Assembly (NCBI GenBank): GCA_964187785.1
Contig: OZ076413.1
Span: 73,036,001 to 73,100,000 of the forward strand
Origin: Amphiscolops sp. MND2022
Lineage: Eukaryota
DNA: 64,000 nucleotides
Direction: 5' to 3'
The notes under the pieces are model-generated. The model searched no databases. It saw only the letters and a list, made by a program, of their open reading frames with translations, and was not told the DNA's origin. Below, piece after piece: positions 2,048-24,695 of this stretch. How positions within the stretch are numbered: position 1 is the stretch's first letter; each line of letters opens with the position of its first letter. The position numbers and the translations under genes are program-made.

Positions 2048-2560
2048 CCCTAAACGACCCGGGCGTTTTTGCAACTTTTCAAAAAAAATTAAATCGTCAA
2101 TATCTGCACAACTACGCACAACTACCAGAGGAACGAACTATAGCGCGTTTGAAAGGCCTGGTATTGGGCTTTCATTTTGGTCAGGTGAGTCCCTGTTGCC
2201 GCTGGCCCTTCGCGGCAGTTCCGCACTCTCTGGTAATTACAGGTTAGTTTTGGGATTTGTTGCGTAAGAACTTGATATGCAAGTGCCTGGGGTTGGTTTT
2301 TACTATGGAAAAGATTTTTTGAGAAAACTGGATTTCACCAAAAAGTGAATTTTAGAAAAAATAACAATTTGTCGTGCAAAAATCCCATTTTTCTTAATTT
2401 TGGAGATATATTCACTTTTCCTAATGCTTGTGCCATTCAAACCAATCTAGTTACCAAGGAATTGTTGGAAAAAACTGTGCTAGAGAATATGGGCTACTGG
2501 CAAAACGGATTAGAAATTGAAAAAAAATGTGACTTTAAAGTACCGTTGGGTCGTTTAGAG
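2048..2560. mobile_element. Non-autonomous piggyBac-like MITE (~513 bp); truncated left-end copy at 592-708
   Basis: TTAA|CCCTAAACGACCC (2048-2060) and GGGTCGTTTAGAG|TTGA (2548-2560) form a 12/13 inverted repeat with TTAA and degenerate TTGA flanks. Confidence 0.65.
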
Positions 2561-3212
2561 TTGAAGTCATCAAAAATTTCCTTTTTTGACTTATATATAT
2601 CCGAACGTTTTGGGATAATTTCCTGATTGCGATCAAGTTTTCGATTTTTTGTGAAGGTACATCAACATCGACATCGTGATCAATTTGACCAAGCTGGTGC
2701 ATAATAATTGTTGTTGTGACTAGTCTTTTCTATTTGCATGTTCTTTTCTATTCCAAATCTGACGGGACTGTGTTTTTAATGAACAACACCACTGTTCCAG
2801 TCTATTCTGGAACAGTAGTGCTGTTTGAGACGCATAAAAACTTCCTAAAACCTATTAACCCATTATCCCGCTTCGATTCAATTTGCAACAAAGAGCGCTT
2901 ACTAACATGTAGCGCCTCATTGCAGTCAGTTTGAAAACTTCGTCAGGTTGTAGACTTGAAAGTTTCTGTCACTTTTCTAGCAAAAATTGGTCTTTGAACA
3001 AACAATGCCTTTCGTCTGTTTTTTTTGGAAAAACTTTCATCACATTTGGTTGAAGAACTTTCTTCTTCATCCTTTTTAACTACCTTCTTTTAAAAGAGTC
3101 TTGCAGCCTGGAGCAACTTCTGCGAAATGCGGAAAAAACTGTTTTTATCAGTAGACAAGAAAATACTTTTGATATCTCGAAAATTCCTCTGGAAACCTTT
3201 GAATGAACTCAC

Positions 3213-3862
3213 CTAACTCCCGTAGTTTTGGAGTAAAAGTTGTTGTAGTGCACTTCCAAGAGGCCCAGAGTTATTGAGATTGACGTGATTGTAACCAAAG
3301 CAGCCGCTAGCACTTTATGATGACTCGACGTGAGTGAGAGAGAAGGTCGGCACACTAACAGGTATCTCACGAAAGCCGTGGCTGTCAAACAAATCCCAGT
3401 GCTGTATTCATTTAGAAAAGTTCGCAGCTCCAAAAGCACACAACCCAGTAACCCACCAACCCAGTGAAGGTTTTCAAAATCCACAAAATGAACATACGGA
3501 GGACCCATGAGATCATCTCTGGCGAAGTGTTTCTGTTTTGCATAGTATTTGTCCATAAGTTTCCACTCATAGATCCCATTCGCAACTCCAGGGCCACATA
3601 TGTCAATCAAACCTTGCATAATTACTGGAAAAAATGTCCAAGATCGAAAATCATTATGTCTTAGAAGAAACGCAAGAAGCAGCATGTTGAATGCAACAGA
3701 TTGGATACTGAAATAGGTGCACAGACCGAGTTTCAGTTTCATTATGTTTAGGAAAAACTCATCTACGCGAAGTCCGTCTTCATTTTTTATCATGTAGAAC
3801 CATTCATCCTGATAACCAAGGCTGGCAACTGGGGTTGCCGTCGAGCTGTTATTGATGCCCAT
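3213..3862 (-). CDS. First coding exon of a divergent rhodopsin-like (class A) GPCR, TM1-TM4
   Basis: Open 217-codon frame from ATG with an N-terminal NNS sequon and four hydrophobic helices. TM3 ends TAFVRYLLVC (DRY-like), with an extracellular Cys before TM3. A canonical AG|GTGAGT donor lies at 3213/3212. TM5-7 exons were not located. Confidence 0.72.
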
Positions 3863-4159
3863 GATTGCACAAGCGTGAAGGAGCTGGCAAAGAATGAACT
3901 GACCGAGTTGATCGTAACAGAATGCAGTTTAATGCACTCTCAAGACTGATGTTTTCACTTTGTAGGTTTTTGTGGAGGAGCGTTAAATGTTTAACTTTGA
4001 AGGCTTGTGGGTGCTCACAGTTTGTTGGTTCAAACCGTTCAAAGAAGTTTTCAAATGCGGGATTTTTGTCCGTACTGGGTCAACTTGCAATCCTGAAAAA
4101 AACTATAGAACCTGAGAGTCCATTACAGTGCCAAAAGTGGTTATTTTGAATTTTTCTTT

Positions 4160-4350
4160 GCAGTGAATTTCGCTGCAATGCATTGGATTCCACTATCAAA
4201 TACCTTAAACATTCGGATCTTGCAGTGGATTCCACTTAACACGAAACGTGGATTCCACTAAACGCAGCAGTGGACTCCGCCGATGGCCGCAGTGGAATCC
4301 ACCATTGGCTGTAGTGGACCCCACTGCAGTGTTTTAGTGGAATTCACTGA
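4160..4350. repeat. Left subterminal cluster of GTGGAWTCCAC palindromes
   Basis: Exact copies at 4225, 4248 and 4292, plus several variants (gtggactccgc, gtggaccccac, gtggaattcac). Confidence 0.85.
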
Positions 4351-4709
4351 ATTCTTTCAATACCAACCTACAAAAGCTATCAACCATCGAAAAGAACTGG
4401 AGTTAGTGTACTTCAGTGCCTAAAAGTGTTTCCTTCACGTGTTCAGTTTTGAGAATGAGGAACATTTTCAGAATCAGCAAGTGTCACAAAAAGCAGAATT
4501 CATGTTTTCTTCATTTGGTTCAAAATTATTACTACAGAGTTTTTGTCAATCAATTTATTTTGATACTCGCACCGCTTTGCCTCTTTAGTTTGACTTACTT
4601 TTTTCATTCTTTGATTGAATCAAACTTCCCAGCTGACTGCAACGGGTATCTTATCAATTCTACCAATCTACAAGTTCAAATTCAGTCATCTAATAAATTT
4701 TAGAGTAGC

Positions 4710-5170
4710 GTCAAATCACTGTTAGTCAATTTGTTGCATGCTGAATATGATGCTACTTCAGAATTTATTACATCAAAAGAGTGGATATCAAAATTTCACC
4801 CACAGCTTATCCGTATATTTTAGGTATAACAAGTTTTCGTTTTCCAATCACCTCATGGTGGATACCAAAATTTCAAAGTAAATTACAAGCCGAATGATGA
4901 ATGAAAATCAACTTATTGTTCTCAAATTCAAATTAAAATTTCGTCCTCTAATAGACTTTAAAGTAAAGTCATATCACTGTTAGTCAAAATGCATGATGCT
5001 ACTTCAGAATTTATTACATCAAACTAGTAGATATCAAAATTTCACAGACAGCTCTTGCGTGTACTTTAGGTATAACTAGTTTTCATTTTCCAATTATCTC
5101 AAGGTGGATACCAAAATTTCAAATTAAATTACAAGCCGGAAGATGAATGGAAATCAAATTATTGTTCTCT
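4710..5170. repeat. Diverged ~250-bp direct duplication inside the giant element
   Basis: tcactgttagtcaa...gatgctacttcagaatttattacatcaaa...ggtggataccaaaatttcaaa occurs at ~4716 and ~4974. Confidence 0.85.
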
Positions 5171-5269
5171 ATCAATATCTCTACCCCTCATCTAGATTTA
5201 TGCGAAGAAGACGTTGCAAGGATTCACTGAAATTGTTATTCACGGTGTTTTGTTCCGGTGTTACGAAAA

Positions 5270-6365
5270 CAAAAACATTTGTATCTGTAGCAATCAGTGT
5301 TTAAATACAAAATCGCAATTGAAATTAAAACGAAAGTAGTGAACAATTGAATACAAAACAACGAAAAGATAATCGTTTTGAAAACGCAGCCGAGTGTTCT
5401 GACGATTCTATCAGTCAAATATCGGCTGGGAATCTTCACGTTCCTGGAAAAGTTGATTGGCAATAGGGTCATTGCATTCAAAACGGAGCTGCTCAAATGG
5501 TAGAACATCCCGTGTATCTCGGAACACTACAATCTTATTGCCATTTTGAAACAACTATATCAATGTAGGCTTCGTGTTGGCGCCGTTTGATTTCAACTGC
5601 GAGTGGTTGGCAAGGCGTTCAGGGCAGCAAATATTTGGGTGAAGGGGGCAAATCTCTTTCGAGGCATCAATGATTCTTCTAGAAGCGCCACTTTTAACCT
5701 CCAGAACGAACTCCTGTTCCACACCTTCTTTCTCGAGGACTTGGCTCAATGACACGTTCAAATACACCTCGCCATGATTTTTCATTAAAATGTCGTCCTT
5801 TGAAACTTTCTGTGTGGCAATCACACATCTACCAAGTTTTGTCATTTTGGCGAAACCTAAACAGATTCCAGGCTACAGCTGTGTCTCACATTGTTGCGAC
5901 AACATAATTTGTGCTTCATACGGCAAATTATGGGCCAGTCCAGCATACCGAATTCCACTGCTCTCAGGTACCTGCGAGGATTTTCTAATTGACTGGTTGT
6001 TAGAGAGAATCAATAACTGCGCTGTCACTTTTTTCACGTCCTGGTTCTTATCCTCTAGCGAAGTCCAATTTTGTCGCTGGAAAAATGCCGTCACTCTTGA
6101 CTCAAGGCAGTTAGTAGCAACTTTCCCAGAAATGTGTTCAAAGTATAGCAATGTCCTGGCTTACTGGCGGGTGTACCTCTGCTGGTCTTGGCGGGCGCGA
6201 ACAGCGTTTCTCACCCCATTTTTGTCGAAACCTTTGACATTTGATAGAACCAAAGTCGTTGCATGTTTCAGCTTGGCGATTTTGAAGCAGGGGTCATTGG
6301 GAAGTGGCATCAGTTCCGCGACTTTACTTTTCAATGTATTTTGATCTTTCTTTTCTTTTTTTTTG
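5270..6365 (-). pseudogene. Disrupted cargo ORF of unknown function, downstream of and probably part of the 327-aa gene
   Basis: The KKKEKKDQNTLK... segment and ORFs 5873-6151 and 5555-5845 share one frame, separated by single stop codons. A plausible 53-nt GT-AG intron at 6366-6418 would link it to the upstream exon, but it is out of phase by 1 nt at an A9 run. Confidence 0.5.
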
Positions 6366-6392
6366 CTTGAAATGAAAAGATCGAAAACATAT

Positions 6393-7395
6393 TTAACGCA
6401 TATTTAAGTCCGTTTTACCAATTGAATTCACAAAAACTAACTCTGTATTAATTGGACGTTTGTCGTCTTTTTCGTATCGAACAATGGCTAATTTGGTGTC
6501 GTTGGGATCAAAAAATGGCCGAATTTGTGTAAAATATACTTTCAATGCTTCAACAAAATTTCCGGGTACTTTGTGAACTGTTCGTTCCGTTGATCCAATT
6601 GTGTGTTCCACACAGAGATTGAAGGCGTCGCTCAGTAAGTTTTCTTCGTGATCCATCACGATTTGCACAACTGAATGTACCGAGACATTCCTGATGGAAC
6701 TTTCAAGCATAGGTGGTACCGCAAAATAGAACAGGGTTGTAATTATGCATCGAAAGAGTTCCAACTTTGCTTTTTGTACTACTCCCACGTCTTCTTTCGA
6801 TGCCTTCACATGTTTAGTCAACGTGCTTTCGTACACGTTGTTGTCAAAGTAAGTAACTTTCGCGCATTTGGATGGGCTATCACCTAAATTATCCTCACTG
6901 CACTGGGAGTCATATGGACGCTTCTCGGGTAGCTCATTGAGCAGGGATGACACATTGTTCGGGGGCGCATTGCTTTGGGGTGGCCCGTTCTGGTGAGGCA
7001 GTAAATTCCGTGACGGAGGGGCCTGTTGCAAGAAGTTCTGAGGCGGCAAAGGAATCTGAGTCAGATTGTGAGCATTCCGCAGTAAATTTTCTAGAGGTTC
7101 GGTGGGCGTGTGTTCAATCAAGTGCTCGATCCCATCAGAGTTCATCATTCTAGTTGCACTGAACAAACCCTCCTCGTGGGCCGATGGAATTGGCGAGCAA
7201 GCTGGCTGACAATACAGGAGTGCATTATTGAGTAAATCTGGTGGCACGTTCCAGTCGGTAGATCGTTGATGCGAGTATTGCACAGGCGTAGATGTCTGAG
7301 ATGGACACAAGAGTGTCGATTCGAGATTTGAAATTTTGTCAGGCATGCTGGAATTATTCATAACTTTGGAGCACAAATCTTGACAGTGGATTTCG
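6393..7395 (-). CDS. Orphan cargo exon (~330 codons; Pro/Gln-rich middle, predicted helical C-terminus), copy A
   Basis: Stop-free for 327+ codons. It is preceded by a strong acceptor (CTAAC branch point, tttcttttcctt, CAG at 7398-7396). No domain recognised. Confidence 0.65.
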
Positions 7396-8167
7396 CTGAA
7401 GGAAAAGAAAGTTTTGTTAGTTTTTTTGAAAAAGCATCATTTTTCTAATTAGCAGAAGAGTCGATTTTACCTAATAAACTAATAACTTCAACCAGTAAAT
7501 GTTATCAGGTTTAATACGGTGATTGAGTCTTTCCAGGACTCAAATACCTCTTTGAATATATTAATACTCACTAGATAATTTAATTGCTAGTGATAATTCT
7601 TTTATTAAGCTCTCGAAAGGGAATGACACCTCCTTTTAGGTCCATCACCGTGAATTTAGCCTCATATTTTGCGCAAGTTTTGTGTTGGCACCTGGTAGTC
7701 ACTTTGCACAAATTTGAATAGTTTCTCCTCAGAGGAAATTCACGTGTTTCTTCCCGTTGAAGTCAACTTTAAACTCCACTACAATGCTTTTGCATAGTTT
7801 TAAATTATACGAAATTGTTCCAATCCTCGACCCCGAAACTTATATTTGTCGCTGGAAAAATGCCGTCACTCTTGACTCAAGGCAGTTAGTAGCAACTTTC
7901 CCAGAAATGTGTTCAAAGTATAGCAATGTCCTGGCTTACTGGCGGGTGTACCTCTGCTGGTCTTGGCGGGCGCGAACAGCGTTTCTCACCCCATTTTTGT
8001 CGAAACCTTTGACATTTGAAAGAACCAAAGTCGTTGCATGTTTCAGCTTGGCGATTTTGAAGCAGGGGTCATTGGGAAGTGGCATCAGTTCCGCGACTTT
8101 ACTTTTCAATGTATTTTGATCTTTCTTTTCTTTTTTTTTGCTTGAAATGAAAAGATCCAAAACATAT

Positions 8168-9170
8168 TTAACGCATATTTAAGTCCGTTTTACCAATTGA
8201 ATTCACAAAAACTAACTCTGTATTAATTGGACGTTTGTCGTCTTTTTCGTATCGAACAATGGCTAATTTGGTGTCGTTGGGATCAAAAAATGGCCGAATT
8301 TGTGTAAAATATACTTTCAATGCTTCAACAAAATTTCCGGGTACTTTGTGAACTGTTTGTTCCGTTGATCCAATTGTGTGTTCCACACAGAGATTGAAGG
8401 CGTCGCTCAGTAAGTTTTCTTCGTGATCCATCACGATTTGCACAACTGAATGTACCGAGACATTCCTGATGGAACTTTCAAGCATAGGTGGTACCGCAAA
8501 ATAGAACAGGGTTGTAATTATGCATCGAAAGAGTTCCAACTTTGCTTTTTGTACTACTCCCACGTCTTCTTTCGATGCCTTCACATGTTTAGTCAACGTG
8601 CTTTCGTACACGTTGTTGTCAAAGTAAGTAACTTTCGCGCATTTGGATGGGCTATCACCTAAATTATCCTCACTGCACTGGGAGTCATATGGACGCTTCT
8701 CGGGTAGCTCATTGAGCAGGGATGACACATTGTTCGGGGGCGCATTGCTTTGGGGTGGCCCGTTCTGGTGAGGCAGTAAATTCCGTGACGGAGGGGCCTG
8801 TTGCAAGAAGTTCTGAGGCGGCAAAGGAATCTGAGTCAGATTGTGAGCATTCCGCAGTAAATTTTCTAGAGGTTCGGTGGGCGTGTGTTCAATCAAGTGC
8901 TCGATCCCATCAGAGTTCATCATTCTAGTTGCACTGAACAAACCCTCCTCGTGGGCCGATGGAATTGGCGAGCAAGCTGGCTGACAATACAGGAGTGCAT
9001 TATTGAGTAAATCTGGTGGCACGTTCCAGTCGGTAGATCGTTGATGCGAGTATTGCACAGGCGTAGATGTCTGAGATGGACACAAGAGTGTCGATTCGAG
9101 ATTTGAAATTTTGTCAGGCATGCTGGAATTATTCATAACTTTGGAGCACAAATCTTGACAGTGGATTTCG
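8168..9170 (-). CDS. Orphan cargo exon, copy B
   Basis: Identical to copy A except TERTV/TEQTV; offset 1775 bp. Confidence 0.65.
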
Positions 9171-9558
9171 CTGAAGGAAAAGAAAGTTTTGTTAGTTTTT
9201 TTGAAAAAGCATCATTTTTCTAATTAGCAGAAGAGTCGATTTTACCTAATAAACTAATAACTTCAACCAGTAAATGTTATCAGGTTTAATACGGTGATTG
9301 AGTCTTTCCAGGACTCAAATACCTCTTTGAATATATTAATACTCACTAGATAATTTAATTGCTAGTGATAATTCTTTTATTAAGCGCTCGAAAGGGAATG
9401 ACACCTCCTTTTAGGTCCATCACCGTGAATTTAGCCTCATATTTTGCGCAAGTTTTGTGTTGGCACCTGGTAGTCACTTTGCACAAATTTGAATAGTTTC
9501 TCCTCAGAGGAAATTCACGTGTTTCTTCCCGTTGAAGTCAACTTTAAACTCCACTACA

Positions 9559-10769
9559 ATGCTTTTGCATAGTTTTAAATTATACGAAATTGTTCCAATC
9601 CTCGACCCCGAAACTTATATTTGGAAGTCTGCGAAGATAATAGCGTTCACAACTGATTGGTGTCTGAAAATCCCATGGATCGACTGGAGCACTCGTCTGC
9701 AGGCAATAGAAAATCCGCTAGAATTGCGTCCTGGCCGAAATAGGTGGAGCATTAGAAAAGCCCGACATTCGCAACCAGTCATGTCGAAGAAGCGTTCTAA
9801 ACCCCTGTCGTATAACCCAAACCGACTGCAAAATAACGAGCCCGTGCAATTTTGGCTACCCGAATGTGATTTTGTGGGGCATTGTTTTATTGATTCCCAT
9901 GAAAAAATTAAAACGGGATTTATTTCGACGAATGACCCAATTACCCATGAGTGTGTCGTGGAGATGGACGAAATGTTTAGATTTATCCCCTATTGTTACT
10001 TGAAGAACTCAGTGGAAAACACCCATGTCACGATGAGAAAGCAGAAGACGGCGATGAAGCTGAAGATGCGAGGCAGGAACATCGGGAAGAACCAAAACAG
10101 AAATGAACTTGAACACAAACACCGGAAATAGACTTTTCAACATTGATCCCGAAAAGCCCTGTTGATGTCAAATTAAGCTATGTACCATGTGTCAATGGGA
10201 TTTGTCAAAGAGGATCCATCATTACTTTGTCTGGAATGGAATTCAAAGCCGAAGATTTGTACTACAGTGCGCAGAAGTTGAAATCATTTGCAATAATAGT
10301 ATTCGTGGACGATGAAGACTGCGAACTTAGGATGCCGGTCAACAACGGTTCGTTGAAGATCTCGGACTATTTGAAAAACATGGAATAAAGTTTTTTCACT
10401 CTTGATAATGATGTTGATAGAACGTTTGCAGTCTTTTCGACAATCAAGAGATGTGTTGGTTTGTCGTTCAACAAATCATCAAATGTGACAAATATGATCC
10501 CTGCAACTGAGCTCACAAAACGTGTCTGTGGGTTCAAGTCGGACTCAAGCAAAGAAACCGTGAAAATTTCAAAAGAAGTTGAAACAGGAAACTTGGGAAG
10601 CTATAACAGCTTAGATTGTATATTGGGCAAGAACTGTGACATCATTCCAGATATGCTTGAAGATGAGCCTGCCACATTGATCAAGATTTTGAAATTCACG
10701 GCGCAACTTTTTGATGTTCTCAATCAGATGCCACATAACGACAACCGAAAGTTACTACAAAAAACTTGA
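9559..10769 (+). pseudogene. Disrupted ~400-codon cargo ORF, divergent from the 327-aa gene, function unknown
   Basis: ATG at 9559 is open to 10131, followed by a frameshift. 10143-10388 and 10461-10769 share one frame, separated by a single stop. Confidence 0.5.
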
Positions 10770-11179
10770 AGATCATCGACGAAGCTTTAGACAAAACAAC
10801 CAACATGCGCACATTGAATACTTTGTTGCCAATGACCAATAGGGGTAGCATTTTTGGTATCCACCGTGAGTAAGTGTGCGATTAGGTCTCCAAAAAACGT
10901 CTGTTTTGTTACCTTAAATAAACTGAATGGTATTTCTATTGGTATCGTTCAAATAAAGTTCTTTTTTCTTAAATCGATTGTTACAGTAATTTTGTCCTTG
11001 TTACAGTAATTGATGTCGAAAAAGTTTTTTTACTTGTGACTACATTCTTGAGAAAATCGCCAGTAGTTAATTTCAAATAATGCGTTTCCCACTTGCGTAA
11101 TAATGATTTATTACTTAGATTGTGACACTTTCCAAACTTTCGGTACAAACGTTTTTTTAAATATGAAACCAGAAACGGT

Positions 11180-11465
11180 AGGTGGATTTGACTAACATAT
11201 GCAAATACATTGGCAGTGGATTCCACAAACAAATCCTTAAACATTTGCAAACCATTTCAAAAGGGGTACATTCAGTGAATTATTAGTTCTAAATTGACTT
11301 AATTTTCTTTTGCAGTGGATTCCACTATTCTGGAAAATAGTCTTCATCCTGCGAAAAGTGGTTTGTGGAATCGACTAACGTATACCAATACATTGGGAGT
11401 GGATTCCACAAACAAATCTTTACACACTTGCAAACCAGTTCAAAAGGGGGTATATTCGGGGTATG
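11180..11465 (+). repeat. Internal inverted-repeat arm L (~1.5 copies of a ~184-bp monomer)
   Basis: aatacattgg(c/g)agtggattccacaaacaaat occurs at ~11205 and ~11388. The segment is the reverse complement of 15720-16045. Confidence 0.85.
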
Positions 11466-11864
11466 TTTCAGGCTACTGGAAATCAGCCATATTATCAAGA
11501 TAGTCAAGATCACGAATAAGCTTTCAATTCTAAGCTAAAGAGTTTGATCAATATAAAAACTAATAAATTATAAAAGTTTCTTCAAGTAGTTCATCATAGT
11601 GAGGTCTTCTCAAGGCTTTTTTTACAGTGGAGGCTTGTTGCGAAGGCCAGCTTGTAGAGAGCAATTTTCTTGCTCAAAAACTCTTTGAGAGTGTCGCAAC
11701 TTGCAAAGGGAGGCAGCAGTGTGTCTAAACAGATCATAATGATGCGGTTTGCAATTTTTTTCAACAGATTTAATCTTTTTCCGATAGTGTAGTGGTCAAA
11801 TACCTATGTAGAGTTTAAGATCAAGATTTCAAAAATTATGACATCACCAATTGTGGCTCCTATC

Positions 11865-14257
11865 CTATATCCTATCCTTCTCCTTTTGAAGGATGCTGCG
11901 GTCACATGTGCTGGTCTTCTGCATTGTTTCGGGGATTTCGGTCTGGTGCAATGGTCCAATTCGCACTTCCTTGATTGTCCCTGTGAAGGCGTACACTGGC
12001 CCTTTTGGGTCGCGATAGGGCTGCTCTGGATCCCTCAATCCCAGTTGATGCAAATTGAAAGCTGGATACACCTGGTAACAAAAGGCATTGACAATGATGA
12101 ATAGAGCGAATTCAAGAAGAAACGTGCAAAATTACATTTTTATTTGAAGAAACTACAATAAAATTGTTAAACGTTTCGAAACCACAACCAATAAATTCCT
12201 TACTTCAAAACCCAGTGTGTGGAAGAGATGTTTTCTTTTTTCAACATTATCAGTTCCCATTCAATATTAACAAACATTCATTACCATTTTGATGGCGTCG
12301 AGCTCACTGCCGATCTGCTCTTTGAGAAGCGTAAGTTGTTGGCTTGAGAAGAGGGGGCTCCATGATCCTCTCAGGGAATTGAGTTTCCGCTGGATTTGTC
12401 GTATTTTCAACTGTAACACAGCATAAATAAGAACAACTACAGAAAAAACTTCTTCATCATCAATTTCCTGCTGACTGGCAATGAGATGGCTGTCCACAAT
12501 CAGAGGGAGTTGGAGGCAAAAGCAATGGAGTCCCCTTTGTCGCAACTACGTGTGGCCAGCGTGCAGGCAAAACGAGGATGTCGCCTGCTTCCACCACAAG
12601 TTTGTGGACCCCACCTTTCAGCGCTTTCAGGTTCCCGAAAGAAGTTGGTCTAAATAGAGACAAATTTTTATACATATGAACGAAACAACTGGTTCAATGA
12701 TTTTGAATCAAGTGTTTGATTGATAAATTGCTCTTTTCAAAATAATGACTTTGCGTTGAGTATGTTTTAAGTACATGATTTGAGTACTTCTACCTGCAAA
12801 ACGGCACTTGTCGGTTCCACCAGCCAGAAGATATTCTGCACTCGGGCGACAGTATAAAAGGTAGTCCTGCTAGAAAAGTCGACATGCCACGGCGTGACAC
12901 ACTGGTCGTTTGAGACCAGCAAATAATTGGATGTAGCCTCAGTGAAGTGCCCTGCTACATCCACACTCATCTGCTAGGTGGTCATCCGCAGAGTATCGGA
13001 CAAAGTCTGGTACTTGGAAAAACTAAACCAAAACGATAAGACTTCAGCAAACGGTTTCGAAACAAAGGCTCCTTTGAACCTTTCCAAGGTGTGGTAAAAA
13101 ACCTTACATTCCGCTCAAGTGCAATATCAATGATATTGACAGGAAATGTCCCCGTAGGCGCTATAGAGGGCCCCGCTCGCTGCTCGTCCAGGTATTCCCT
13201 CACTGCTAAAGACCTGACCTGAAATTCAAACTGTATATTCCGATCATACTCCTTTGAAACTACTTTACCAATGTTTATATATCTCAAAGTGAAATCCACT
13301 GCCAACGATGTCTTAGTCACTGTCCAGTGGATACGAAATCTCAAAATACTTTGGTTCAACGGAGAGAATAATTTTTGTCACTAATGGTAAAACGCTATAA
13401 TTAAAAAAAGTTTGTGAAATTCGAAAAGTACAAAGAATGGCGGTATATGTTCACCTGTTGGTCAGGTGGTAGTCGTGATGTCTTTGCAGCAAGCTTCGCT
13501 GCAGGATTAGCCACGTGCTGCAGCAAGAACTCGACTTGGTGGAGAAAGTCCTCAGCGGGCAGAACTGGGAGCTTCAAACATCGCGAGTTCATTGCCCCGT
13601 TCTTCCACAGTTTTGGCTGGCCACGAGAAAGTGCTTTCATGACCATGCCGTTTTCATCTTTTTGCCCATTCTCCCACCTGCAGCAGTTCCATGACTCCTC
13701 TGAAAGCAGCATGTCATCTAGGTGCTTTACGAAGAGACTCTTCCCTTCGTACGCCCGTCGACTTGGCTCGCTCGTCATTGCCATGTCGCTTCCTTTGTGT
13801 CAGGTGTCTCTGTAGGGAGTCAGTCCGGGCAAATTCTTCACCACAGGATGTGCAAGGATTTTTCTTGCTGGGGTTGGCTGTTCCTAGGAAATTTTATGTT
13901 TAAACTTCAAACTACTCGTCGAACAGTTCTGCCAAAAACAGTATTTTCCCATCGTGAAAGCTAAACCAAGTAACACAATTGTTTTCGTTTTCTCACAGGC
14001 AAATTGTTGACATAAATGGTCTGCTTACAATAATTTCTATTATTTTGGGGTATGTCTGTCGTGCAGTACCTCGCATTCTCGATGTGCCGCTTGAGGGTTA
14101 CAGGGGTGGCAAAGACCCTCTTGCAACGGGGACAAGCTTTGTTTGGCGGCTGCTTCGAACTGCAAGTTTTTTGGTGCCTCTCAAGTTTCGTGCGGCGGTT
14201 CGACTTGTACGAACAATTGGGGCAGTTGAATTCAGTCTGTTGAAACAAGAACAACAC
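11865..14257 (-). pseudogene. Spliced zinc finger + JmjC (KDM2/KDM7/PHF8-like) histone demethylase gene, frameshifted
   Basis: Two C2H2/C2HC-type fingers (CPNC...HQKTC; CPRC...HIENARYC) at 14060-14230. JmjC motifs: NYLLVSNDQCVTPWHVDFSSRTTFYTV..IFWLVEPT (12810-12930), VVEAGDILVLPARWPHVVAT, and GDSIAFASNSL after a frameshift in a G run. GT donors at ~13456, 12793 and ~12284. A phase-0 junction reads AIKM|VYPAF. Confidence 0.8.
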
Positions 14258-14632
14258 TATAGTTTAACCTCGAAGTCTCGTGCATTTACCTATTTTTTTA
14301 GTTGTCATGTAAACTTATATATGAGTATCAAAGAGAATTGATCTTTGAGATCAGAACCATAAAGTATTGGATTGCTCCCTCTTAAAATGATATAAAAAGA
14401 TCGAATTCGGGTCTTTTCTGTTATCCCCCACCCTACTCATTAAAATTTTACCCCCAATATTTCGTATGTCAGGATAAAAAGAGCAGTACATGACTCACTT
14501 CCTAATGATTCACTTCTTAATGAACATTTCAATTTTTATATGGTAAGAATCGTAGTAAAAGACTAATTTCCTTTGACTCATTTCTTAACGAATTGAGGGG
14601 GAAGAGTAAACATGCTGGGGGCTCTTTATTTC

Positions 14633-14960
14633 TACTCACGGTGGAAACGAAAAATTGCCTCTACAAATGGTGAACAATTTTTCACTCAGGCCTGTTCAAA
14701 GAAGATGGCAGTTCAAACTCAGATTTGTTTTTCTACTCGGGGGAAACGAAACTTTCCCTATGGAAGTTCAAGAGGACTTTTTACTGACAGTGTGTACCAA
14801 ATTTTTACTATACAGACTCAGGTTTTTTCCACTACTTACGGTGGATACAAAAAATTTCTATTCAAATGCAGAACAAAACTTTACTCACGGTGTAAACCAA
14901 AAAACTTTTATTACAACTGAAACTGACTCCTTTTCTGCTCACGGTGGATACACAAAGTTT
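14633..14960. repeat. Degenerate ~50-bp tandem array (~7 units) with core TACTCACGGTGGATAC
   Basis: Core variants at 14633, ~14683, 14733, 14782, 14833, 14882 and 14936, upstream of the ZnF-JmjC gene. Confidence 0.75.
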
Positions 14961-15719
14961 TTCAACTGAAACGAACATTTTCATTTCGTATCCCCAATTT
15001 TAGAGGTAAAACTATAAAAAAAGGAACTAACCATTATGAAATGAGGAAGCAGGCAACGTATAAGGAAATCGACTTTAAAGACTTGTATGACAAAGGTCAG
15101 GCAAAGACCTAAAGAAGGCTTTTTGAATTAAGTTGGTCAAAACTAGCAAGCGGTTGAATTGAAAGATCGAATGACAAAGAATCAATTCCCTGAACTAGAA
15201 AAACATTTCCTACATCCACTTCGGCAGTCAATCAAAATCGAATTATCATTTCCGGTTCCGTAAACTTTTGTAACAGTTCTGTTTTATGACGCTACAACTG
15301 CAAACACGTTTATCAAATTGACACTTTCTTCAGATTCATTCCAATTGTGCTGAGTGAATGCATACATTTGAACAAATGAATGGTAAACAAAATGAAACAT
15401 ATTTAAGCAAAATGAAAAACGGAACGAGAGCAGACTTTTTCTAGAACACAAAATGATTCACTTTTTAACCTACCAAAAAAATTTTGAATGCACTTTAGAT
15501 AATTGAACGTTGCATATGTCTTACGAAAACCTATTTTATTTGACAACTTCTCTGAAGTCACAAATATTTAGGACAAACGTTATCAAAAATTTCTGTTATT
15601 GGAACCCTATGTTGAATTTGATCATTAAATTTGTTCATGATTTCTTCCGTCGTGACTCTGAGTGCGGTAATTTTAATTTTAATTATTGTAGCCTGATGTC
15701 ATTCTTTTTGTTGTACATA

Positions 15720-16045
15720 CCCTCTTTGAATAGGTTTGCAAATGTTCAAGCATTTGTTTGTGGAATTCACTGTCAATGTATTGGTATACGTTAGTCGATT
15801 CCACATATCACTTTTCGCAGGGTGAAGAATACTTTCCAGAATAGTGGAATCCACCGCAAAAAAAATTTAAATCTATTTAGAACTGTAACTCACTGAATAT
15901 ACCCCTTTGGATTATTTTGCTAATGTTTAAGCATTTGATTGTGGAATCCACTGTCAATGTATTTGTATATGTTATTCAATTCCACTAACTGCTTTTTGCA
16001 GGATAAGGAACGTTTTCCAAAAGAGTGGAATTCACTGCAATAAAG
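15720..16045 (-). repeat. Internal inverted-repeat arm R (~1.8 copies of the ~184-bp monomer)
   Basis: Reverse complement matches arm L, e.g. gtggaatcgactaacgtataccaatacattg and gtggattccactattctggaaa. Confidence 0.85.
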
Positions 16046-16387
16046 TTCAAAACTATTCAGGATTTACAATTATTACAAAACTGGTGTTTTTTTACTCCTG
16101 TAACTATCCCACTTGCTGGAACACTACGTGGTTTCAGCGCGCTCCGGACTTCATTTTTCAAACTTCTTTATATACCACCCCAAAGGTGAAAATGACCGCC
16201 AAAGTTTAGACAGTTGCTATAAAAGTCGAAGAATTGCTACTTTTTTGAGAATTACTTTTTTGGTAATCAATAAATGAGTTTCTTCTAAATAACCAGAAAA
16301 AAAATGTTCAAAAGCTTATTTATTACCACAAGCAAAGATAAAAGAATATGTCTTCAAAATCAAGTAATGAACAAGCAGTTGCAAAAA

Positions 16388-19300
16388 TTAGAGTAAAAGA
16401 CGATCATCAGCTGGAGTTTTGTTAGGTTTCACTAGGCCGTTTCGGTATCTTTTCAATGCCAAAATGGCAGACGAATTCTCTATTGATTTGTTATCATCTA
16501 TTTGAACCATTAAGAGTGGTCGCATGTCATTAATTTTCATCCGGTTGATCAAGAGTCCAGGCCCTATCATATCTTTATTAGGGTCTAGAATGAAGGTAGA
16601 TTTCATATTTCGAGTACGTATTCAACAGTGATGAACATGAAACCCCCGACGCAAATAATTTGCAGCCCAAAGCTGCTGGAGACAACTTCTTTTGTTTAAA
16701 ACTTTTCATTTTCTCTGCTTTCAGCGTCTGTTGACAACTCACTCGCGGAACAATGTCTATGAAGCTTCAGTTTTGTTCTCATGGCTTCCAATTGATATTT
16801 ATCACCGGTCGCATTATTAAGGTTCTCTTCATCTTTGACAATAACGTGAAAATTCAAGATATTTGAATGGGATTTCATTAGGTTCTTTGCGTTTTCTTTC
16901 TCATAAACGACACCTCCCATTTCGGAAATTCTATCTTTGAGGAAATCCTGTGTGAGCCCACGCTTGAACCTACCTACAATTGTAAATCTCGATCCTCTTA
17001 GAAGGTCGCAAAATTCTCTCGTTTCGCCAACGGCAAGGCAGGGTACCGCCAGGAGACCTCTACAAATGTCTAGATAAGTTTTGGCACCCTCGAGAGTCTC
17101 TTCAGTCGTGAGTGTTTTTCTCACATGTTCAATGAGATTGGATATATTTTTCGGAAATTGTTTAAGAAATATCCAGGAACCAGCAAAATGAAAACGCAGT
17201 ATCCAGAAATAATGGATCTTGATGGTAAATGGAGCCACCGCCTCTCATGGTTCAGGTTCGACTTTTTCTGTTGGCATTGTGGTTTGATTTTTCCAAGCCT
17301 TCGCAGAGGTGATTCCTTGACCTCTCAATGTACCCGCTTTCAACTAGTTGTGCCATCAATGGAAGCTTGAGTTTGTATGGTGTCGACCCCTTTTGGCCGA
17401 AGAGAAACAAATTGATTCGAAAGTATGTTCCAGCCCATCGTTTGTAAGTGTCGACATCAATGTTTTCTGACTTCTCAACAGAATAACACACTGGTTTAAA
17501 CGTTGTCGTAGAAGCTCACAAGCGTCAAAAGTTGACATATATCTTTCTTCGTTTCTTAGATTTATGGGGTCTCGTTTGTCAAATAAATGTGGATGTAAAG
17601 ACTCCAGTACTTTTGCAGCCTCCAAGTTGTATCCATTCTCACTTCCAAGAAGTATCTCTGTCGTCCAAAAACCGTCATAAAGGTTCTTGATTGTTTCAAG
17701 TTGAGCATTTCTAAGTTCTTCTGTTTCAGCTATAACTGTGAGTGCATTCGACCCCGCTAATGACTGTGGTCCTAATGTTCCTGGGGTTTTACCTACGTTC
17801 TTGTGGGTAATATTGAACTGAAAAGACAGTCTTTTAGCTTCTCGGCTGGTCAGATTTTTTTTCAAAGCGCTGAACGCTTAAAGCTTCCCAGGGATGTTTG
17901 TCGTTAATTACCTTCTGAGCCACTCTTCTAATATCATTCTCACTGCAACGCGTTATCATGTGTGACAATACATCTCTAGGAACATGTTGTCTGAATGGGA
18001 TCTACAAAAATGTTCATCGTCCATCGACATCTGAGCAGCAGGTGGGGAGGAAATTTTTATCGCATACATATATCGGAAGTTGTGAGGGATGAGAACTTGA
18101 ACGTTCAGTTGAAATTCCAATGACCCAACGCTTCAAGAACGGGCTGTCACCGCTGTATGTTATTTCAAAGCCCAACGATTGTAATTCTTTTGTCTGGCGG
18201 TATAGCCATCTAGATTCTTGCTTACCCAGGATAGACGGTCTAAAATTTTGTTCCATTGCATATCGACCATCTTTGCCACGATAGGATGCAAAACAGAGGA
18301 CAGCTTTTGATGATTAGCTGCCAACTGTGGTGTTCAAAATGCTGAATGCTAGACGCGTTACCTCAACCCCCCCCCCATTTCACAACCGTCACCCCAAATA
18401 TAATTTTTAAGGCCTTCAAGATTGGTTTTTTGCAGGAAAATTAATGACGCAAACGTCACTGCTTTCAGTAAATTGACTAGAAATCCAGAAGAGGATCGTT
18501 CAGGCTCGCATCTTGTAACAAACAATTTCATTATGAGGCTAGTGGCTCTTTTGATGTGACGAATTAACGTTACTAGGCTACTGCCTCCTAAGCCAACCGA
18601 AACTACCCGTTGCCGAATTGCATTGAGGATATCTTCCATGTTGCCAGTTTTCATTTTGATTGAAAGTTCGTACCTAAAGCACTCGGAGGAGCTTCTGTCC
18701 TCCAAAAGACCCGTGAACAAGTCTCGAATGTGATTACTGCTTGCGCTCCTTTTCCGCCACGCGCTACGTTTCTGATGCTGTTCTTTGAGAATTGTAGCTA
18801 ATCCTTGATTAGGTATACCATGCATTCTAGCAAAATTCAGGACTTTTGTCCAAAAAATTTTACTATTAGTTCTGTGTCACTTTTTGAGTTGCAACTGCGT
18901 AATATTCATATCTGCTTTTTGCTGGTCTTGTTGAATATCAACTTCTGGTGTCTTCTGTAGCACTGCATCTTCTTGGAATGTTACTTCAAGCGGTGTTTTT
19001 TCAAAAGTCCCATGTTGAGAAGAAAATTTATCATTCGTAAAAATACCGACGTCGGGAAAAAAATTGGTGGTAAATTATTTTGCAACGAATTCTCTTCTCT
19101 TTTCGTACCAAGGTAAGTTTTTATAGCCCCGCAGAATTAAAAGTTTCATTTTTTTCGATGTAACAAAAACATATCCCTGGGAATGCCCTTTGATTGGTAA
19201 TTTCTGAATAAGATCGTCTGTCTTCAGAGTGGTCCCTACGACCATTTCAGCAACGATTGAAGTAAGTTTCCGTTGACAATTTTTTAACGTGTGTCCTGAC

Positions 19301-19650
19301 ATAAAGTCTACAATTTTGGAATCGATAAATTCTTTCCCATCATCTAGTGATAGACTGAACATTTCAAATTCTGACATTTCTAAACTTGTAGACAATGAAA
19401 TTGAGCGTATCAATGGTGTATCATTCCGTTGACAATGATTACGCCGAAAAACTATCAATATACGTTCAATTGTTATTGAGTTTCCCGCTCGTTGCGTCTT
19501 CTGATACTTCTGAATTTGGGCCTCAACTTCAACCTCAATTAAACTAATCTTGCAACATTTTTCTCATGGTATTACTGCTCCGCACGCTGTTTAATTAATT
19601 CTTCAACACCTGTTTTAAAACATTTGATTGCACGTTGAACTAAAAATACA
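16388..19650 (-). pseudogene. Disrupted ~1000+ codon RAG1/Transib/Chapaev-like DDE transposase with C-terminal BRCT-like domain
   Basis: A chain of minus-strand ORF pieces contains HVPRDVLSHMITRCSE (D-x-L-H-like, ~17930-17990) and STPYKLKL...NHLCEGLEKSNH (17290-17385). The latter resembles RAG1 TNYFHKTLAH...SEGNES with its catalytic Glu. LRGSRFTIVGRFKRGLTQDFLKDRISEMGGVV resembles a BRCT N-terminus. Confidence 0.62.
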
Positions 19651-20869
19651 TTGTTATGCGTGCGTTCACTAGTAGGTGATAAAGTTAGGTGTGATTTACC
19701 CCAAAAATCATGTGGAATGATTTTTCAGTGATTTTTTCAGTTAGATTTTTTGTGTCCACCGTGAGTCGGTCGACATTATATGAATGATTTGAGTGTGATT
19801 TTACCCCAAAAATCATGTGGAATACTGCCAGCAAATTCTTCTGTTGTTTTTCGACCGTGAGTTGACCGTGAACTGGAACAAAGTTCAAGCACTACTAAGT
19901 TGCTTTACCTGCTGCTGTGTGTACTCAAGTTGACAAAAAAAATAAATGACGAAGAAATTTTTTTAATTATTGAAACTACACATTATCATGAGCAAAAGAA
20001 AGACGTGAACAAAACTTACAACTAAGTTTTTATAGGGTGTAGAAGAGAGGAACGCATCAGGTGTAAGTTGCAATCATTGATAAAGAGTGATTGTAAATTT
20101 CCCACAAGTCGCCAATTGCGTCACAGAAGTTGTATTCGGCATCCTCAAACAAACAAATTTAAAAAGTGGAACTTTTTCCTTTTTCTCACACTTATCAAGA
20201 TGTTGTTTTTGCGATTACAGTAGACTTCGGATAATCGATTACCGGCGTATCCAAAATTTCAGGTAAACGAATTAAAATCCCCGGCAGAGTAGAACATACT
20301 AACATGTTTTCGTTCAATGAATATTTTGCTGAAACAAATATTTTTCGCCGGTCCTGCCAGTATTCTATTAGCCGAAGTCGACGGTAAGTAACAACAAAAA
20401 GACTTGAAAACACACCAGAATCCTTCAATTTTAAATGTATTTCCAGGGGAACAAATTACAATTGAGATACAAACTTTGTTCACACTCTTTTCCCTACTCT
20501 TTGAAAGGTGTGGGGGACTAAGCAAGAAGAGCCAAAAGTCTTTCAATAACGTGGTTATTCACGTGTTAGTTTGAGAGATACATTAATCTGAACCAACATG
20601 AAAATTTTGAAAGAAGAATTTCCACATTTCATTAATGTTTCAATCTTGTTTCTCAATGAAAAATTGGAAAAAAGAAATTTTGAAAATTCCTTCATGTTTC
20701 ATTGATGTGTTCTTTGAACGTGTTCTTTTATGTGTTCATTTGTGAGATACATTCAAATTAATCAGCTTTCACATAATCAACACAATTTCACAGGATTTGA
20801 GCGTTCAAAACTAGTTTATCATGGATTAAGTGTTACATGATTTGAGTGGATTACGAACTTTTCTTACCC

Positions 20870-21240
20870 GCGCGTGGATTTGAGTGGATTACCGCATTGT
20901 GGTCAATTACCTTACAGTCAATTCCACTCGTTTTGCAGTCAATTCCACAAGTTGAAAAGTGGAATCGACTGCGAGCCAAATTGTAATTGGCTGCGAGCCA
21001 AAGTGGACACGACTGTAAGCCGAAGTGGAATCCACTGTACAATTCAGGGATTTTCGCTGAAAGTTGAAATAAGCTGACGCGATTCGTTCAATTCAGTTGG
21101 CAGTGAAAAGCAGTGTATTTCGGTGATCGCATTTCTGTAATTTAGCAAGATATGTTACTGGAATCCAGAACAGGCTGCAGCAGAATCCACTGAAAATCAG
21201 TGAAATACATGTTTAATAATACGTCAGTGGATTTCAGTGA
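20870..21240. repeat. Right subterminal cluster of GTGGAWTCCAC-type repeats
   Basis: Exact GTGGAATCCAC at 21025, plus gtggaatcgac, aattccac, gaatccac and gtggatttc variants. Confidence 0.8.
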
Positions 21241-21399
21241 CTTAATAGCACAAAAGTGTGCTAACCCACTTTTGGCACTGTAATGTCAATGGTACATCTC
21301 TATGACCATTGCTGCATACCATTTCGAAAGTTGCAAATTTACTTGAAACTCTCGGAACTCAATTTTTGGTGACACAATTATGATGGACGAAAAGCACAG

Positions 21400-22642
21400 G
21401 TACAATATATTAAAAACAAAGATAACAATCTAAGGAAATATGTATTGAAAACGTGCATAGCTTTTGTACATGCTCCGATAGGTTCTGAAGTTTGTATTCA
21501 TCGTTACAAAAAAAATTTGTAAAGATTGATGTTCTCAAGTGCATTCTCAACTGCCCATATTTTGCATATTTTTCAAAGAAATACCCCAGTGAAATGAACA
21601 AACGATAGCAAAGTTTAGTTTTTGCAAACGAAATCTGCAAAATTAGTCAAAGAATGTCGAAAAGGGAAAGCCGACTGTAATAGTAAAGTCCTGGTTGTAT
21701 TACCAGTTATGTTAGTTATGTTCTTCGAGGGTGTCCGGGGTGAGGTGCATTGGGTTGAGTTCCCTCTTCATTTGGGCCCAAACATTTTCTATGCGGTTGA
21801 AATCTGGGCTGTATGGGGGCCAGAACTCTTTCGCAATACCATTGTCATGAAGCCACTGCTTAATTTCCCTCGATCGATGGATGGGACAGTTGTCATCCAT
21901 GAAAAACTGGTCCTCGCCCAACGTGTCGATTCCGGCCGTCTTCAGCAGATCAATATAGTCTGCACTCTTGCATCTTTTTGGAGTCTCCAACAATACTCAA
22001 GACCCATGGCCACCTATGCAGTCCCAAAACATTATTGAAAGTCGCGACGTTGTCTTCTCGATTGTGTTCTCTGGCTTGTACCGAGTGGTCCTCCAGACAT
22101 AAACTCGTCCATCACTCTTCAATTAAAACTTGCATTCGTCGCTAAAAACAATGCGTTTCCACTCCTTAACGGTCCTTTTACGTCTCTGTTTTACCCAGAG
22201 CTGTCGTTAACACGGGTTTCTGCTCTCATTCGATGCTTCTTCGCAGCGGCACGGCCTTCAAGGTCCATTCTGTGCAAATTTCGTCGAATTGTTTTTGTAG
22301 ATACAGTTTTGATGCTGAAACTGTTGAATAGAACACAAAGGTTTTTTGCCGATGCCTTGTTGTTCTCCTCCTTTTTGCGTCGTCTACACTGCCATTTTCC
22401 AGGTAATTTTTATAGATTGTTTGAGCCATTGATTTGTTTAAAAAACGCATCTTCTCTTAAATTTGTTCCCACGAAAAGCCCAAATCTCGAAGAATAACGA
22501 CCTTAAGGCGTTCTTGAGACGTTGTTTTACCAATTTTAAACGTAATATTGTTTTAACAGTGAACGGAAAGAAGTTTGTTTTCACGCTTCCTAAAAAATTT
22601 ATACATTTAACTAGCACGCTGTAAGTTTTTGTTTATGCACTG
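21400..22642 (-). mobile_element. Decayed Tc1 (DD34E) transposon
   Basis: WKRIVFSDECKF (~22130) and FMDDNCPIHRS...WPPYSPDFNRIENVW with 34 residues between D and E (ORF 21712-21993). A TA|CAGTGC end lies at 22644-22637. The other end is not clearly seen. Confidence 0.85.
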
Positions 22643-23229
22643 TATTTCGTTTATGTTAATGTGATTGTGTAACATTAGTGATGTTACTTTCTTTTTCAAA
22701 CTACGATGATGGATATTACTCAGCACTTTAAAGAGACGCTAACAGAGTGGCAAAATTAGGTTTAGTAGGTGATATACTTTCATATTGAGTTTCTACCCAT
22801 AGTTTGAATGTCTAGACTCCATTGCAATGTTCTGAATTTTAATTTATATCTAGTTTGTATTTTTCACGATGTATATGACTGTTAAACTTCTTTGATTTGT
22901 CCCCAACTACAACTGAAGTAAATGTTTTACCATCGAGCTATCACTATACCTAGACGTAAACTACAGCTCTGTTACTGTTAGTGTCTCTTAAGTACTTCGT
23001 CAAATCAGTAATAACATTTCTAGGATTGAACGTCAGTCTAAAATGCACACAAAATAACAAGTGATTTAACCGAAGCAACCATCATCCAATTCTTTCCTTT
23101 GATCCTTCACGTCACTTTCCTGTACTAAACCATTCTGGTTCGATGATTCATATCGGTACACAAGCCTTCTTTTCTGTACTAATCAGAAGAGTGTTTCGAC
23201 ATCTCGTCGAAACACGGCTTTCTGTACTA

Positions 23230-24695
23230 CACCATTTGCAATTCAAGAGAGAGAAAAGACTGATTTGAGTGAGTGAAAAAGCACATTCAAGTGAGAACAC
23301 GCCGTAAGTGACAAGTGACATTCAAGTGAGAAATCAAACGTTCAAGTGAGAGAAAACGGAAATTCAAGTGAGAGTGTTCATACCTTGTTCAAAGCCTCTT
23401 CGAATTTTTTCATTCTGAACAACTACTCGTCCAAATCAGGCCGTCCAAAGTCCCAGTTGTTGACAAAGGAAGAACTATCGCTGCATTTTTGAGCGGAGAT
23501 TAAGTTTTTCTCGAAGTTGCCAAAATATTGAACGTGAATTCGAGCACAGCCTACACCTTAGTAGCACGCCGTGACCAAGCTGTTCAGATACATGAGGGCG
23601 AATGTTATCAAAACTTTGATGGAGAAATGAAATAAAAAGCAGTCGATATACTCAGCAAAAAACCCCCCTCATTACACTCAAATGTACGAAAAAACAACTG
23701 CCTTAGGAGCTCCCAGAAAAAAATCACGTACATACAAAAACATGAGCAAATGCCCTGGACGGACTTGCGTATATCCTCAAGCAACAGTGTGACGTACCTG
23801 GAGACAGAAACAGGGCTGATGTCATAAACGAGAGATATGAATATGCGAGGTGGCTAACTAGTCCAAATCTGGTCAACGCCTGCAAAATTTACGTTGACGA
23901 ATTCGGAATAAACATTCACACAAAGAGAAACCAAGCATTCAGTATTAGAAGAACTAGGGAATACCGCAACGTATCAGGACAGAAGTCATAGAACGTGACA
24001 GTATGTTTTGGCATCGTTGCAGAATATGGGATTGTGTATTATGGGATATACAGAGGTGCATGATCATATCCAGGTACCAAGAATTTGTTAGCTTATGTTT
24101 TGGAAATCTGATAGCGGAAATGTGTGAGGATACCTCATTTTGGATAACGCACTAGCCCATCGTGACATTGAATTGCTGAATATGGATCAACTGAGCTTCA
24201 GACTTTTGCCAAAGTACAGCCCATTTTTGAAAATTCCATTTCGTGGAAAACGCCATTTCATGCTGGAAAAATGTGTTCAAGTGTCAGCCCTCATCAAGGC
24301 AAAACGAGTTCACTGAGATGGCTCCTAATGGAGGAACGCTGGCCGATCAGATATTCATTTTACATTCAGAGATATTAGAATCTACCAAACACGTAATAAC
24401 TCTTGAAAAATGCAGAGCATGGGAACAGTTCGTACTTTCATACCAAACTTCTTGCCTGGCAAACAAAAAAATCGACAGCTGAAGCTATCTTTCGAAACAA
24501 TACATGTTAATTTAAAAATTCTTTCACTTAAATTACTCTCTATTCGTTAATTAACGAACACTCTCATTGACTTCCTGTTCTTTCTCAGCTGAATGTTCGA
24601 TTTCTCACTTGAATCTCACTTTCAACATGTTCTCACTTGAATGTGCTTTTTTTCACTCGAATGGGCCTTTTCTTTCACTTGAATTGCAACTGGTG
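23230..24695 (+). mobile_element. Complete but decayed IS630-Tc1-mariner element (1466 bp)
   Basis: TA|CACCATTTGCAATTCAAGAGAGAGAAAAG ... CTTTTCTTTCACTTGAATTGCAACTGGTG|TA is a 29-bp TIR with 3 mismatches. Subterminal TTCAAGTGAG repeats. Peptides IYVDE, ILDNALAH, LPKYSPFL and ENAISCWK. Confidence 0.9.

Follow-up and report, generated by a model that had tools for sequence, protein, structure and literature searches.

A putative docking word for a transposon-encoded zinc-finger JmjC protein in Amphiscolops sp. MND2022

Sequence-specific anti-silencing by transposons is represented in print, as far as was found here, by the plant VANC system. In Arabidopsis VANDAL elements, a transposon-encoded factor is paired with a short, family-specific motif that lies in introns, intergenic and terminal non-coding regions, forms clusters by tandem duplication and differs from family to family, and the 2017 VANC paper leaves open which protein regions set target specificity (PMC5735166). 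A comparable layout is present in a stretch of 64,000 nucleotides from Amphiscolops sp. MND2022 (GCA_964187785.1, contig OZ076413.1, positions 73,036,001 to 73,100,000), the whole of which is called the window below. Here, a transposon of ~17 kb (4121-21285), bounded by 20-bp inverted repeats, carries scattered copies of a 16-bp motif and a gene for a protein that appears to join three C2H2 zinc fingers to a JmjC domain. Sequence comparisons make it quite probable that the element's own zinc-finger protein docks at the motif, whatever the direction of the effect; that the effect of this three-finger protein is anti-silencing is favoured with less assurance.

The VANC elements are plant MuDR elements in which DNA methylation is lost and binding has been shown (PMC5735166), whereas the present case involves an animal-type genome, weak CpG decay, a word of 16-21 bp, two unrelated recombinase classes and a predicted C2H2-JmjC reader whose binding is likewise predicted. 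The cargo consists of C2H2-JmjC, SET and open reading frame 2 (ORF2) genes and a transposase with a RAG1-like model, in place of a VANC protein in a VANDAL/MuDR element. REF6/JMJ12 of Arabidopsis offers a second comparison, being a JmjC demethylase guided to a DNA motif by its own C2H2 fingers; it is a host gene that acts on H3K27me3 at thousands of genes via CTCTGYTY (PMC7105484, PMC6497721). JmjC and tandem C2H2 fingers also share one predicted reading frame in the element gene, but this gene is carried by a transposon, is KDM2/7-like, has its fingers at the N-terminus and has a target restricted to its own family. Orthology with REF6 is not indicated: at E<=0.01 the catalytic exon matches KDM2/PHF8/PHF2/KDM7 entries only, and the motif differs. 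The H-x-D...K...H pattern and the sequence match of this exon are shared with KDM2A, PHF8 and KDM7, enzymes targeted by CXXC or PHD domains, in place of which the element gene has C2H2 fingers. The system may be described as a VANC-like layout with REF6-like predicted chemistry that belongs to neither. Chromatin-modifying cargo is also carried across unrelated transposon lineages by fungal TET/JBP-bearing DNA transposons, HarbingerS and oomycete MuDR with SET, for whose enzymes the accessible text describes no matching target motif (PMC12730594), whereas the element here has a predicted reader and a co-varying site. In the literature searched (titles and abstract openings, outside subscription journals, Repbase Reports and supplements), no publication on a transposon-encoded zinc-finger JmjC protein with a cognate motif was found.

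An initial annotation of the window had pointed to the motif in non-coding parts of the element. A scan allowing <=3 mismatches gives 8 matches in the window (4850, 5096, 10857 exact on minus, 14633, 14833, 14882, 14936, and 19752 on minus), compared with a mean of 0.20 and a maximum of 1 in 100 shuffled controls. A family profile, which was built from family sites and is circular for matches inside the element, gives 10 matches, contributing 14782 and 19848-19863 beyond the mismatch scan. Every one is inside 4121-21285, and the profile finds zero matches in the remaining 46.8 kb of the window, in agreement with the annotator's impression by eye that the motif does not occur outside the element; on 20 shuffled windows it gave 0-2 matches per shuffle. 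The copies are distributed as follows.

4850-4865, plus strand: motif copy 3' of the SET gene, found by mismatch and profile scans
5096-5111, plus strand: motif copy, paired with the copy at 4850 by a local duplication of 246 bp
10857-10872, minus strand: exact motif copy over the last codons and stop of ORF2
14633-14951, plus strand: motif cluster (14633, 14782, 14833, 14882, 14936 and degenerate copies) in predicted intron 1 (15031-14237) of the zinc-finger JmjC gene
19752-19767, minus strand: motif copy upstream of the transposase, found by mismatch and profile scans
19848-19863, minus strand: weaker motif copy upstream of the transposase, found by the profile scan

The annotated exact reverse-complement copy at 10857-10872 and the reverse-oriented variants at about 19750-19870 are recovered, and those given as 4852 and 5098 are located at 4850 and 5096. 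Between 14633 and 14951, where some seven variants at ~50-bp spacing had been reported, five copies are clear and two (about 14684 and 14733) are degenerate ones seen by eye. Their placement upstream of the zinc-finger JmjC gene requires correction, since the cluster is probably in intron 1 of that gene: it lies between a conserved ATG|GTTAGT (15034-15026) and an in-frame acceptor at 14237, ahead of the first finger exon. Most copies are non-coding as had been stated, and the one at 10857 departs from this rule.

Across the 1.07-Gb genome, the motif core has 184 exact matches, compared with 11 for a reversed control pattern. Among the matches listed (100 of 184), 98 fall no more than 16 kb from a family end or transposase and form 28 clusters, one of which also includes the remaining 2. 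The motif is enriched in its cognate family and rare in other families. Its positions are also conserved, which answers the concern that they might vary among copies. In a survey of 26 copies selected by transposase match, sites recur at four places: at the end of ORF2 (26/26), upstream of the transposase (26/26), in the intron as a cluster of three or more sites (25/26), and at the left end (24/26). Three further decayed loci outside this survey have 1, 3 and 6 sites. Motifs occupy non-coding regions and form tandem-duplication clusters whose size varies by duplication, with 1-14 sites between copies; the exception is the one of the four positions that lies over a stop codon, and the intron is a predicted one.

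The gene whose predicted intron holds the densest cluster has the following structure.

11640-15034, minus strand: three-finger zinc-finger JmjC gene, KDM2/KDM7-like, with four frameshifts in the window copy
ATG 15034-15032, 14236-14031, 13883-13455, 13218-13108, 13022-12808 (aligned part) and 12649-12280, minus strand: its predicted exons, with further exons 3' of these

Predicted exons 2-6 form an open 473-codon frame with HVD, K and WPH and three fingers, where the initial annotation had counted two; a 21-residue linker precedes finger 3, and the frame is open in 7/18 copies. The JmjC exon matches KDM2A (E 5e-11) and PHF8 (E 3.6e-10). H-x-D, which with the following H makes up the Fe(II) triad, is present in 18/19 alignment rows, and by homology the protein would be a demethylase. 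More than 1000 JmjC-exon candidates occur in the genome. Two other features were observed in introns of this gene. At 14490-14590, in the same intron as the cluster, TGACTCA/TGATTCA repeats adjoin CTTCCT/CTTCTT, which we take to be AP-1/ETS-like, and in most copies a JmjC intron contains a terminal-repeat-like site (13272-13305).

Sister families were reached with the transposase and the JmjC exons as queries. There are nine JmjC-carrying family groups, each with its own homologous version of the word, and two of them are tyrosine-recombinase-type elements. Words are given below as base 1, bases 2-4, 5-7, 8-10 and the rest, with the helices (-1 to +6) of finger 1 and finger 3.

Family W (the window's family): A CTC ACG GTG GATAC; finger 1 RRTNFER; finger 3 RSDSLQR
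Family F: G CTC ACG GTT TAGAA; finger 1 RKYNFER; finger 3 HKYSYER
Family D/G: G CTC CTG GAG TCGTTAC; finger 1 K/RLFNF/YNR; finger 3 SRSNLLR
Family A/C: A CCC ACG ATT GGAAC; finger 1 RxWHLTR; finger 3 YGYSLRN
Family H: A CTC ACG ATT GGGAC; finger 1 RLFNLQR; finger 3 YQYVLRN
Family J: G CTC ACG ACA GGGAC; finger 1 KLSNIIR; finger 3 YPYDLRV
Family I: G CTC NCR RCY GATGAC; finger 1 KASNFKR; finger 3 YRFDLKN
Family E: G CTC RCG ACC GATGGC; finger 1 KASNLAR; finger 3 YRSNLRE
Family K: T GTG GTC ATA GGGAC; finger 1 KSSN/DIKR; finger 3 FSL/YDLKT

A cross-scan of these words over 32 loci is nearly diagonal. The only off-diagonal matches are between A/C and H, whose words differ by one base, between E and I, and, in one J locus, three of D/G type; one decayed W locus scored zero at cross-scan stringency. 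Exact genome matches number 552 for the A/C word and 110 for the E word, compared with 0 for controls. The word travels with the three-finger JmjC gene, because family E carries it without transposase or ORF2, an element of type G without transposase, ORF2 or SET, and family B has those genes and none of the nine words. The family E element, 11.8 kb long and inserted in a TAA microsatellite, has a SET gene, a JmjC gene, the homologous word and a tyrosine-recombinase-like gene (Atlas 0.93); it is fully covered and gives no match to the window-type transposase or ORF2. This makes the transposase N-terminus, which had been put forward as a candidate binder, an unlikely reader. Family I resembles family E and is partly covered. 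The 6.4-kb G element (L193-L194, L195-L196) has its own ends, a JmjC gene and the word, with no transposase, ORF2 or SET match detected, and is possibly a stand-alone helper. Some further details of these families were recorded. The SET gene of family E (L185:2740-L186:4556, G000 C6:26.65 Mb) is a different one, Suv4-20-like by eye. In family B (L111-L112), a repeated TCTCTGGGATTA near the element end starts with CTC, and the single finger is Asn+3/Arg+6. The A/C word shows a strand bias in the element irrespective of gene direction (131/135 and 103/115 sites in loci of the L124 and L126 type), and families A/C have a second clustered word, CAGCGKCGCGTATCA, near the start of the JmjC gene.

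Base changes between the words can be compared with finger residues. Published pairings include RSDNLTR with GAG, RSDSLTR with GTG, and His3 with G (PMC1920264). On the lower strand, finger 1 predicts GAG with Asn+3 and GGG with His+3 for bases 2-4. With seeds drawn only from the right-hand part of the word, Asn at +3 of finger 1 goes with a left triplet CTC (W 21/27, D/G 57/75, F 20/22 and E 7/7 distinct sites) and His at +3 with CCC (A 24/34, C 26/32). Family H has the right half of A/C and a similar finger 3, yet its finger 1 has Asn and its word CTC. The initial annotation had the fingers reading part of the CACGGTGG core; finger 1 is instead predicted on the CTC/GAG triplet at the left end. 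Its contacts fit in 15/15 cases in the first five groups, equalled by 100/20000 column shuffles, and in 25/27 in nine groups. Finger 3 fits bases 8-10 only on the upper strand. Under the strict code it has 9 contacts, with 2/120 label permutations as good, and over nine groups 14/17 scorable contacts fit at one register, with 18/20000 label shuffles as good. In all, the word fits finger 1 in 8/9 groups and finger 3, on the opposite strand, in 7/9, through few independent changes. The finger 1 prediction, fixed before the sequences of 4 held-out families were retrieved, held in H, I and J (3/4) and failed in K; for finger 3, the fixed code could score only Asn+6-to-A, which held in H and at 6/11 I sites. 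A canonical same-strand reading of fingers 2 and 3 was also tried and gave no fit.

In the proposed mechanism, finger 1 would read bases 2-4 (GAG, lower strand), finger 3, past its 21-residue linker, would read bases 8-10 off the other strand (GTG), and finger 2 would contribute little specificity. The JmjC protein, docked at the word of its family, would remove histone methyl marks there, which would probably keep the element from silencing, and protein from open copies would act in trans on broken ones. Both the anti-silencing direction and the action in trans on broken copies such as that in the window are suggested by analogy to VANC. The earlier proposal, that a protein encoded by the element binds the motif, draws good support from family restriction, conserved positions and co-variation with the fingers, and is altered in its finger count, the bases read and the transposase as reader. 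A wider claim, to which we give an even chance, is that two unrelated recombinase classes in an animal-type genome share a mobile cassette, in which a KDM2/7-like demethylase has C2H2 fingers that evolve in step, residue for base, with an address word private to each family and scattered through its sequence. Such a cassette would be an animal case of sequence-specific anti-silencing, and its families would form a natural series of zinc-finger codes, one finger of which switches strand. In the predicted reader, a C2H2 array with contacts readable from sequence is fused to a predicted effector enzyme, and one genome offers at least nine reader-site pairs. If binding is confirmed, reader-target co-evolution in the arms race between transposon and host becomes testable by single-residue swaps. 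Zinc fingers, so far seen mostly as weapons that hosts use against transposons, would then be shown working on the transposon's side.

Several observations weigh against this interpretation. KDM2A, among the nearest enzymes, need not be activating. Family B, which has a transposase, ORF2, SET and a JmjC gene with one canonical finger, lacks a match to any of the nine words. No register suits finger 2, the finger 3 prediction fails in family E, and the predictions for finger 1 and finger 3 both fail in family K, where finger 1 in register matches the middle base only. Label shuffles for finger 1 are not significant (24/120; 2272/20000) because the score hinges on one residue change. About four concordant changes underlie the code scores, because the families are related: in the JmjC tree one clade unites W, F and D/G (91/89) and a second unites A, C and H (89/93). 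The strand switch of finger 3 is non-canonical and was found post hoc; a BCL11B C2H2 pair reported to bind in two orientations is a loose precedent only (PMC13752505). The code entries Asp3-C and Val3-T, taken from published tables (PMC1920264, PMC5260015), were added once the held-out families had been seen. Bases 11-21 are conserved although three fingers do not account for them, and they resemble a GTGGAWWC end-repeat half-site. Finally, motif bases show no significant extra conservation relative to flanks in 9/9 within-family pairs (p 0.07-0.9), these being the 9 aligned pairs, while 4 further loci had no alignable region.

The same protein may bind the motif and dampen or tune the element, as self-repression with feedback via its own first intron. 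We consider this unlikely, even though the densest cluster lies in the JmjC gene's own predicted intron 1 and the best structural match is KDM2A, an H3K36 demethylase. The SETD8-like writer that is also aboard suggests a designed chromatin state over simple erasure. Sites are also found at the transposase upstream region and at the ORF2 and SET genes, a layout described for VANC targets (PMC5735166), and PHF8/KDM7 score nearly equal to KDM2A.

A more doubtful possibility is that the transposase or ORF2, as a TnpA-like regulator, binds the motif via a half-site akin to that of the GTGGAWTCCAC end repeats. The right half of the motif, GTGGATAC, is similar to such a half-site, an ACCAAAA-like tail is common to several families of the same transposase type, and transposases can activate cognate copies according to a preprint (bioRxiv 10.64898/2026.08.24.746577). 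Against this, the homologous word is present in family E without both genes, none of the nine words is present in family B with both, and base changes track finger residues. A composite site, with the fingers and a partner on the right half, is compatible with the data. The common left part RCTCACG of most families, together with a putative, loose likeness to paired-domain sites, would suit a host transcription factor site exploited by these elements. This is very improbable: among the matches listed, exact ones are confined to element copies, and each family has one version of its own throughout its sites, a pattern that a single host factor would not call for. Slightly less probable still is a functionless relic of local tandem duplication, as could be suggested by the expansion and contraction of the cluster (1-14 sites) and by motif conservation not significantly above that of flanks, since solitary sites in separate gene modules agree with the version of their family, the word is retained between families with almost unalignable non-coding DNA, and within arrays motif identity is 0.76-0.84 compared with 0.33-0.43 in flanks, a comparison biased by selecting matches on the motif.

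Three other readings of the word were rejected. A splice donor (GTGAGT, one strand) does not suit homologous words that occur in both orientations relative to genes, most of them without donor sequence. A palindromic dimer site (TACTCAC-N-GTRRGTA) fits W only, since sister words are non-palindromic and a relaxed dyad gives 0-1 sites in A, B and C loci. A recombination-signal-like reading (CACGGTG plus ACCAAAA), suggested by the RAG1-like fold, meets a spacing of 3 bases and a heptamer that is gone in other families.

The remaining features of the element are listed here.

4121-4140, plus strand: left terminal inverted repeat, beginning CATTACAGTG, with a TC target-site duplication at 4119-4120
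21266-21285, minus strand: right terminal inverted repeat, with the TC duplication at 21286-21287
4183-4347, no strand: left subterminal GTGGAWTCCAC palindromes, a separate second motif class
11173-11457, no strand: internal GTGGAWTCCAC repeat block, inverted partner of 15715-16042
15715-16042, no strand: internal GTGGAWTCCAC repeat block, partner of 11173-11457
20917-21190, no strand: right subterminal GTGGAWTCCAC repeats
5555-9211, minus strand: SET-domain gene, SETD8-like, broken and internally duplicated over 1775 bp (Pfam SET E 4.8e-8 for a sister copy; SETD8 E 4e-4)
9570-10873, plus strand: ORF2, broken, with a weak Tudor-like lead at the N-terminus (Atlas scores <0.8, a lead only)
16430-19377, minus strand: transposase with C-terminal BRCT, broken; RAG1/Transib-like fold modelled on a sister-family protein

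All four genes are broken in the window copy, and young family copies are 96-99% identical. The GTGGAWTCCAC class is likely transposase-related; its blocks sit between gene modules, whose order and orientation vary across families. A Pfam search with ORF2 gave no family. CpG observed/expected is 0.86, with CpG transitions at 121/15118 compared with 435/76264 elsewhere. DNA methylation as the mark being countered was set aside on this weak decay signal, which fits a histone mark better and does not establish it.

Pfam, a PDB sequence search and a shallow model gave BRCT only or nothing for the transposase. The model of the sister-family protein (pLDDT 85.5) has Foldseek matches to RAG1 (E 1e-7) and HzTransib (2.7e-5), and is nearest to RAG1 (Z 16.7, rmsd 7.6, 462 aligned), BbRAGL and HzTransib. 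This predicted fold and the CA...TG ends are shared with the CMCT group (CACTA/EnSpm, Mirage, Chapaev, Transib, Plavaka)/RAG1, from which the element differs in its 2-bp duplication, C-terminal BRCT, lack of a Pfam transposase match and three cargo genes. Transib makes 5-bp target duplications and has CAC-type ends; the modelled fold agrees with Transib, whereas the duplication is a direct one of 2 bp in 15/15 copies that retain both outer ends, out of 21 family loci, and the ends are CATTAC. PlavakaB is described with CATCA..TGATG ends and 2-3-bp duplications (PMC12730594). On the modelled fold, the family (RAG1/Transib-like, 2-bp duplication, CATTA...TAATG ends, BRCT tail) is possibly an undescribed CMCT-group lineage; a representative library holds 568 transposase relatives.

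Outside the element, window positions 1-2160 hold an 87-bp tandem array (about 10 copies) within a 1456-bp duplication, including words like GTGGAATC that are similar to the A/C family ends. A partial rhodopsin-family receptor open reading frame (3209-3928, minus strand; Pfam 7tm_1, E 8e-6) adjoins the left side of the element; together with spliceosomal introns, it points to an animal host. Beyond the right end are a decayed Tc1/mariner transposase (21700-22460, minus strand; DDE_3) and an inverted-repeat element (23228-24697), followed at 26265-41200 by a reverse-transcriptase-like open reading frame fragment and by long direct repeats separated by about 10.4 kb, which suggest an old long terminal repeat element.

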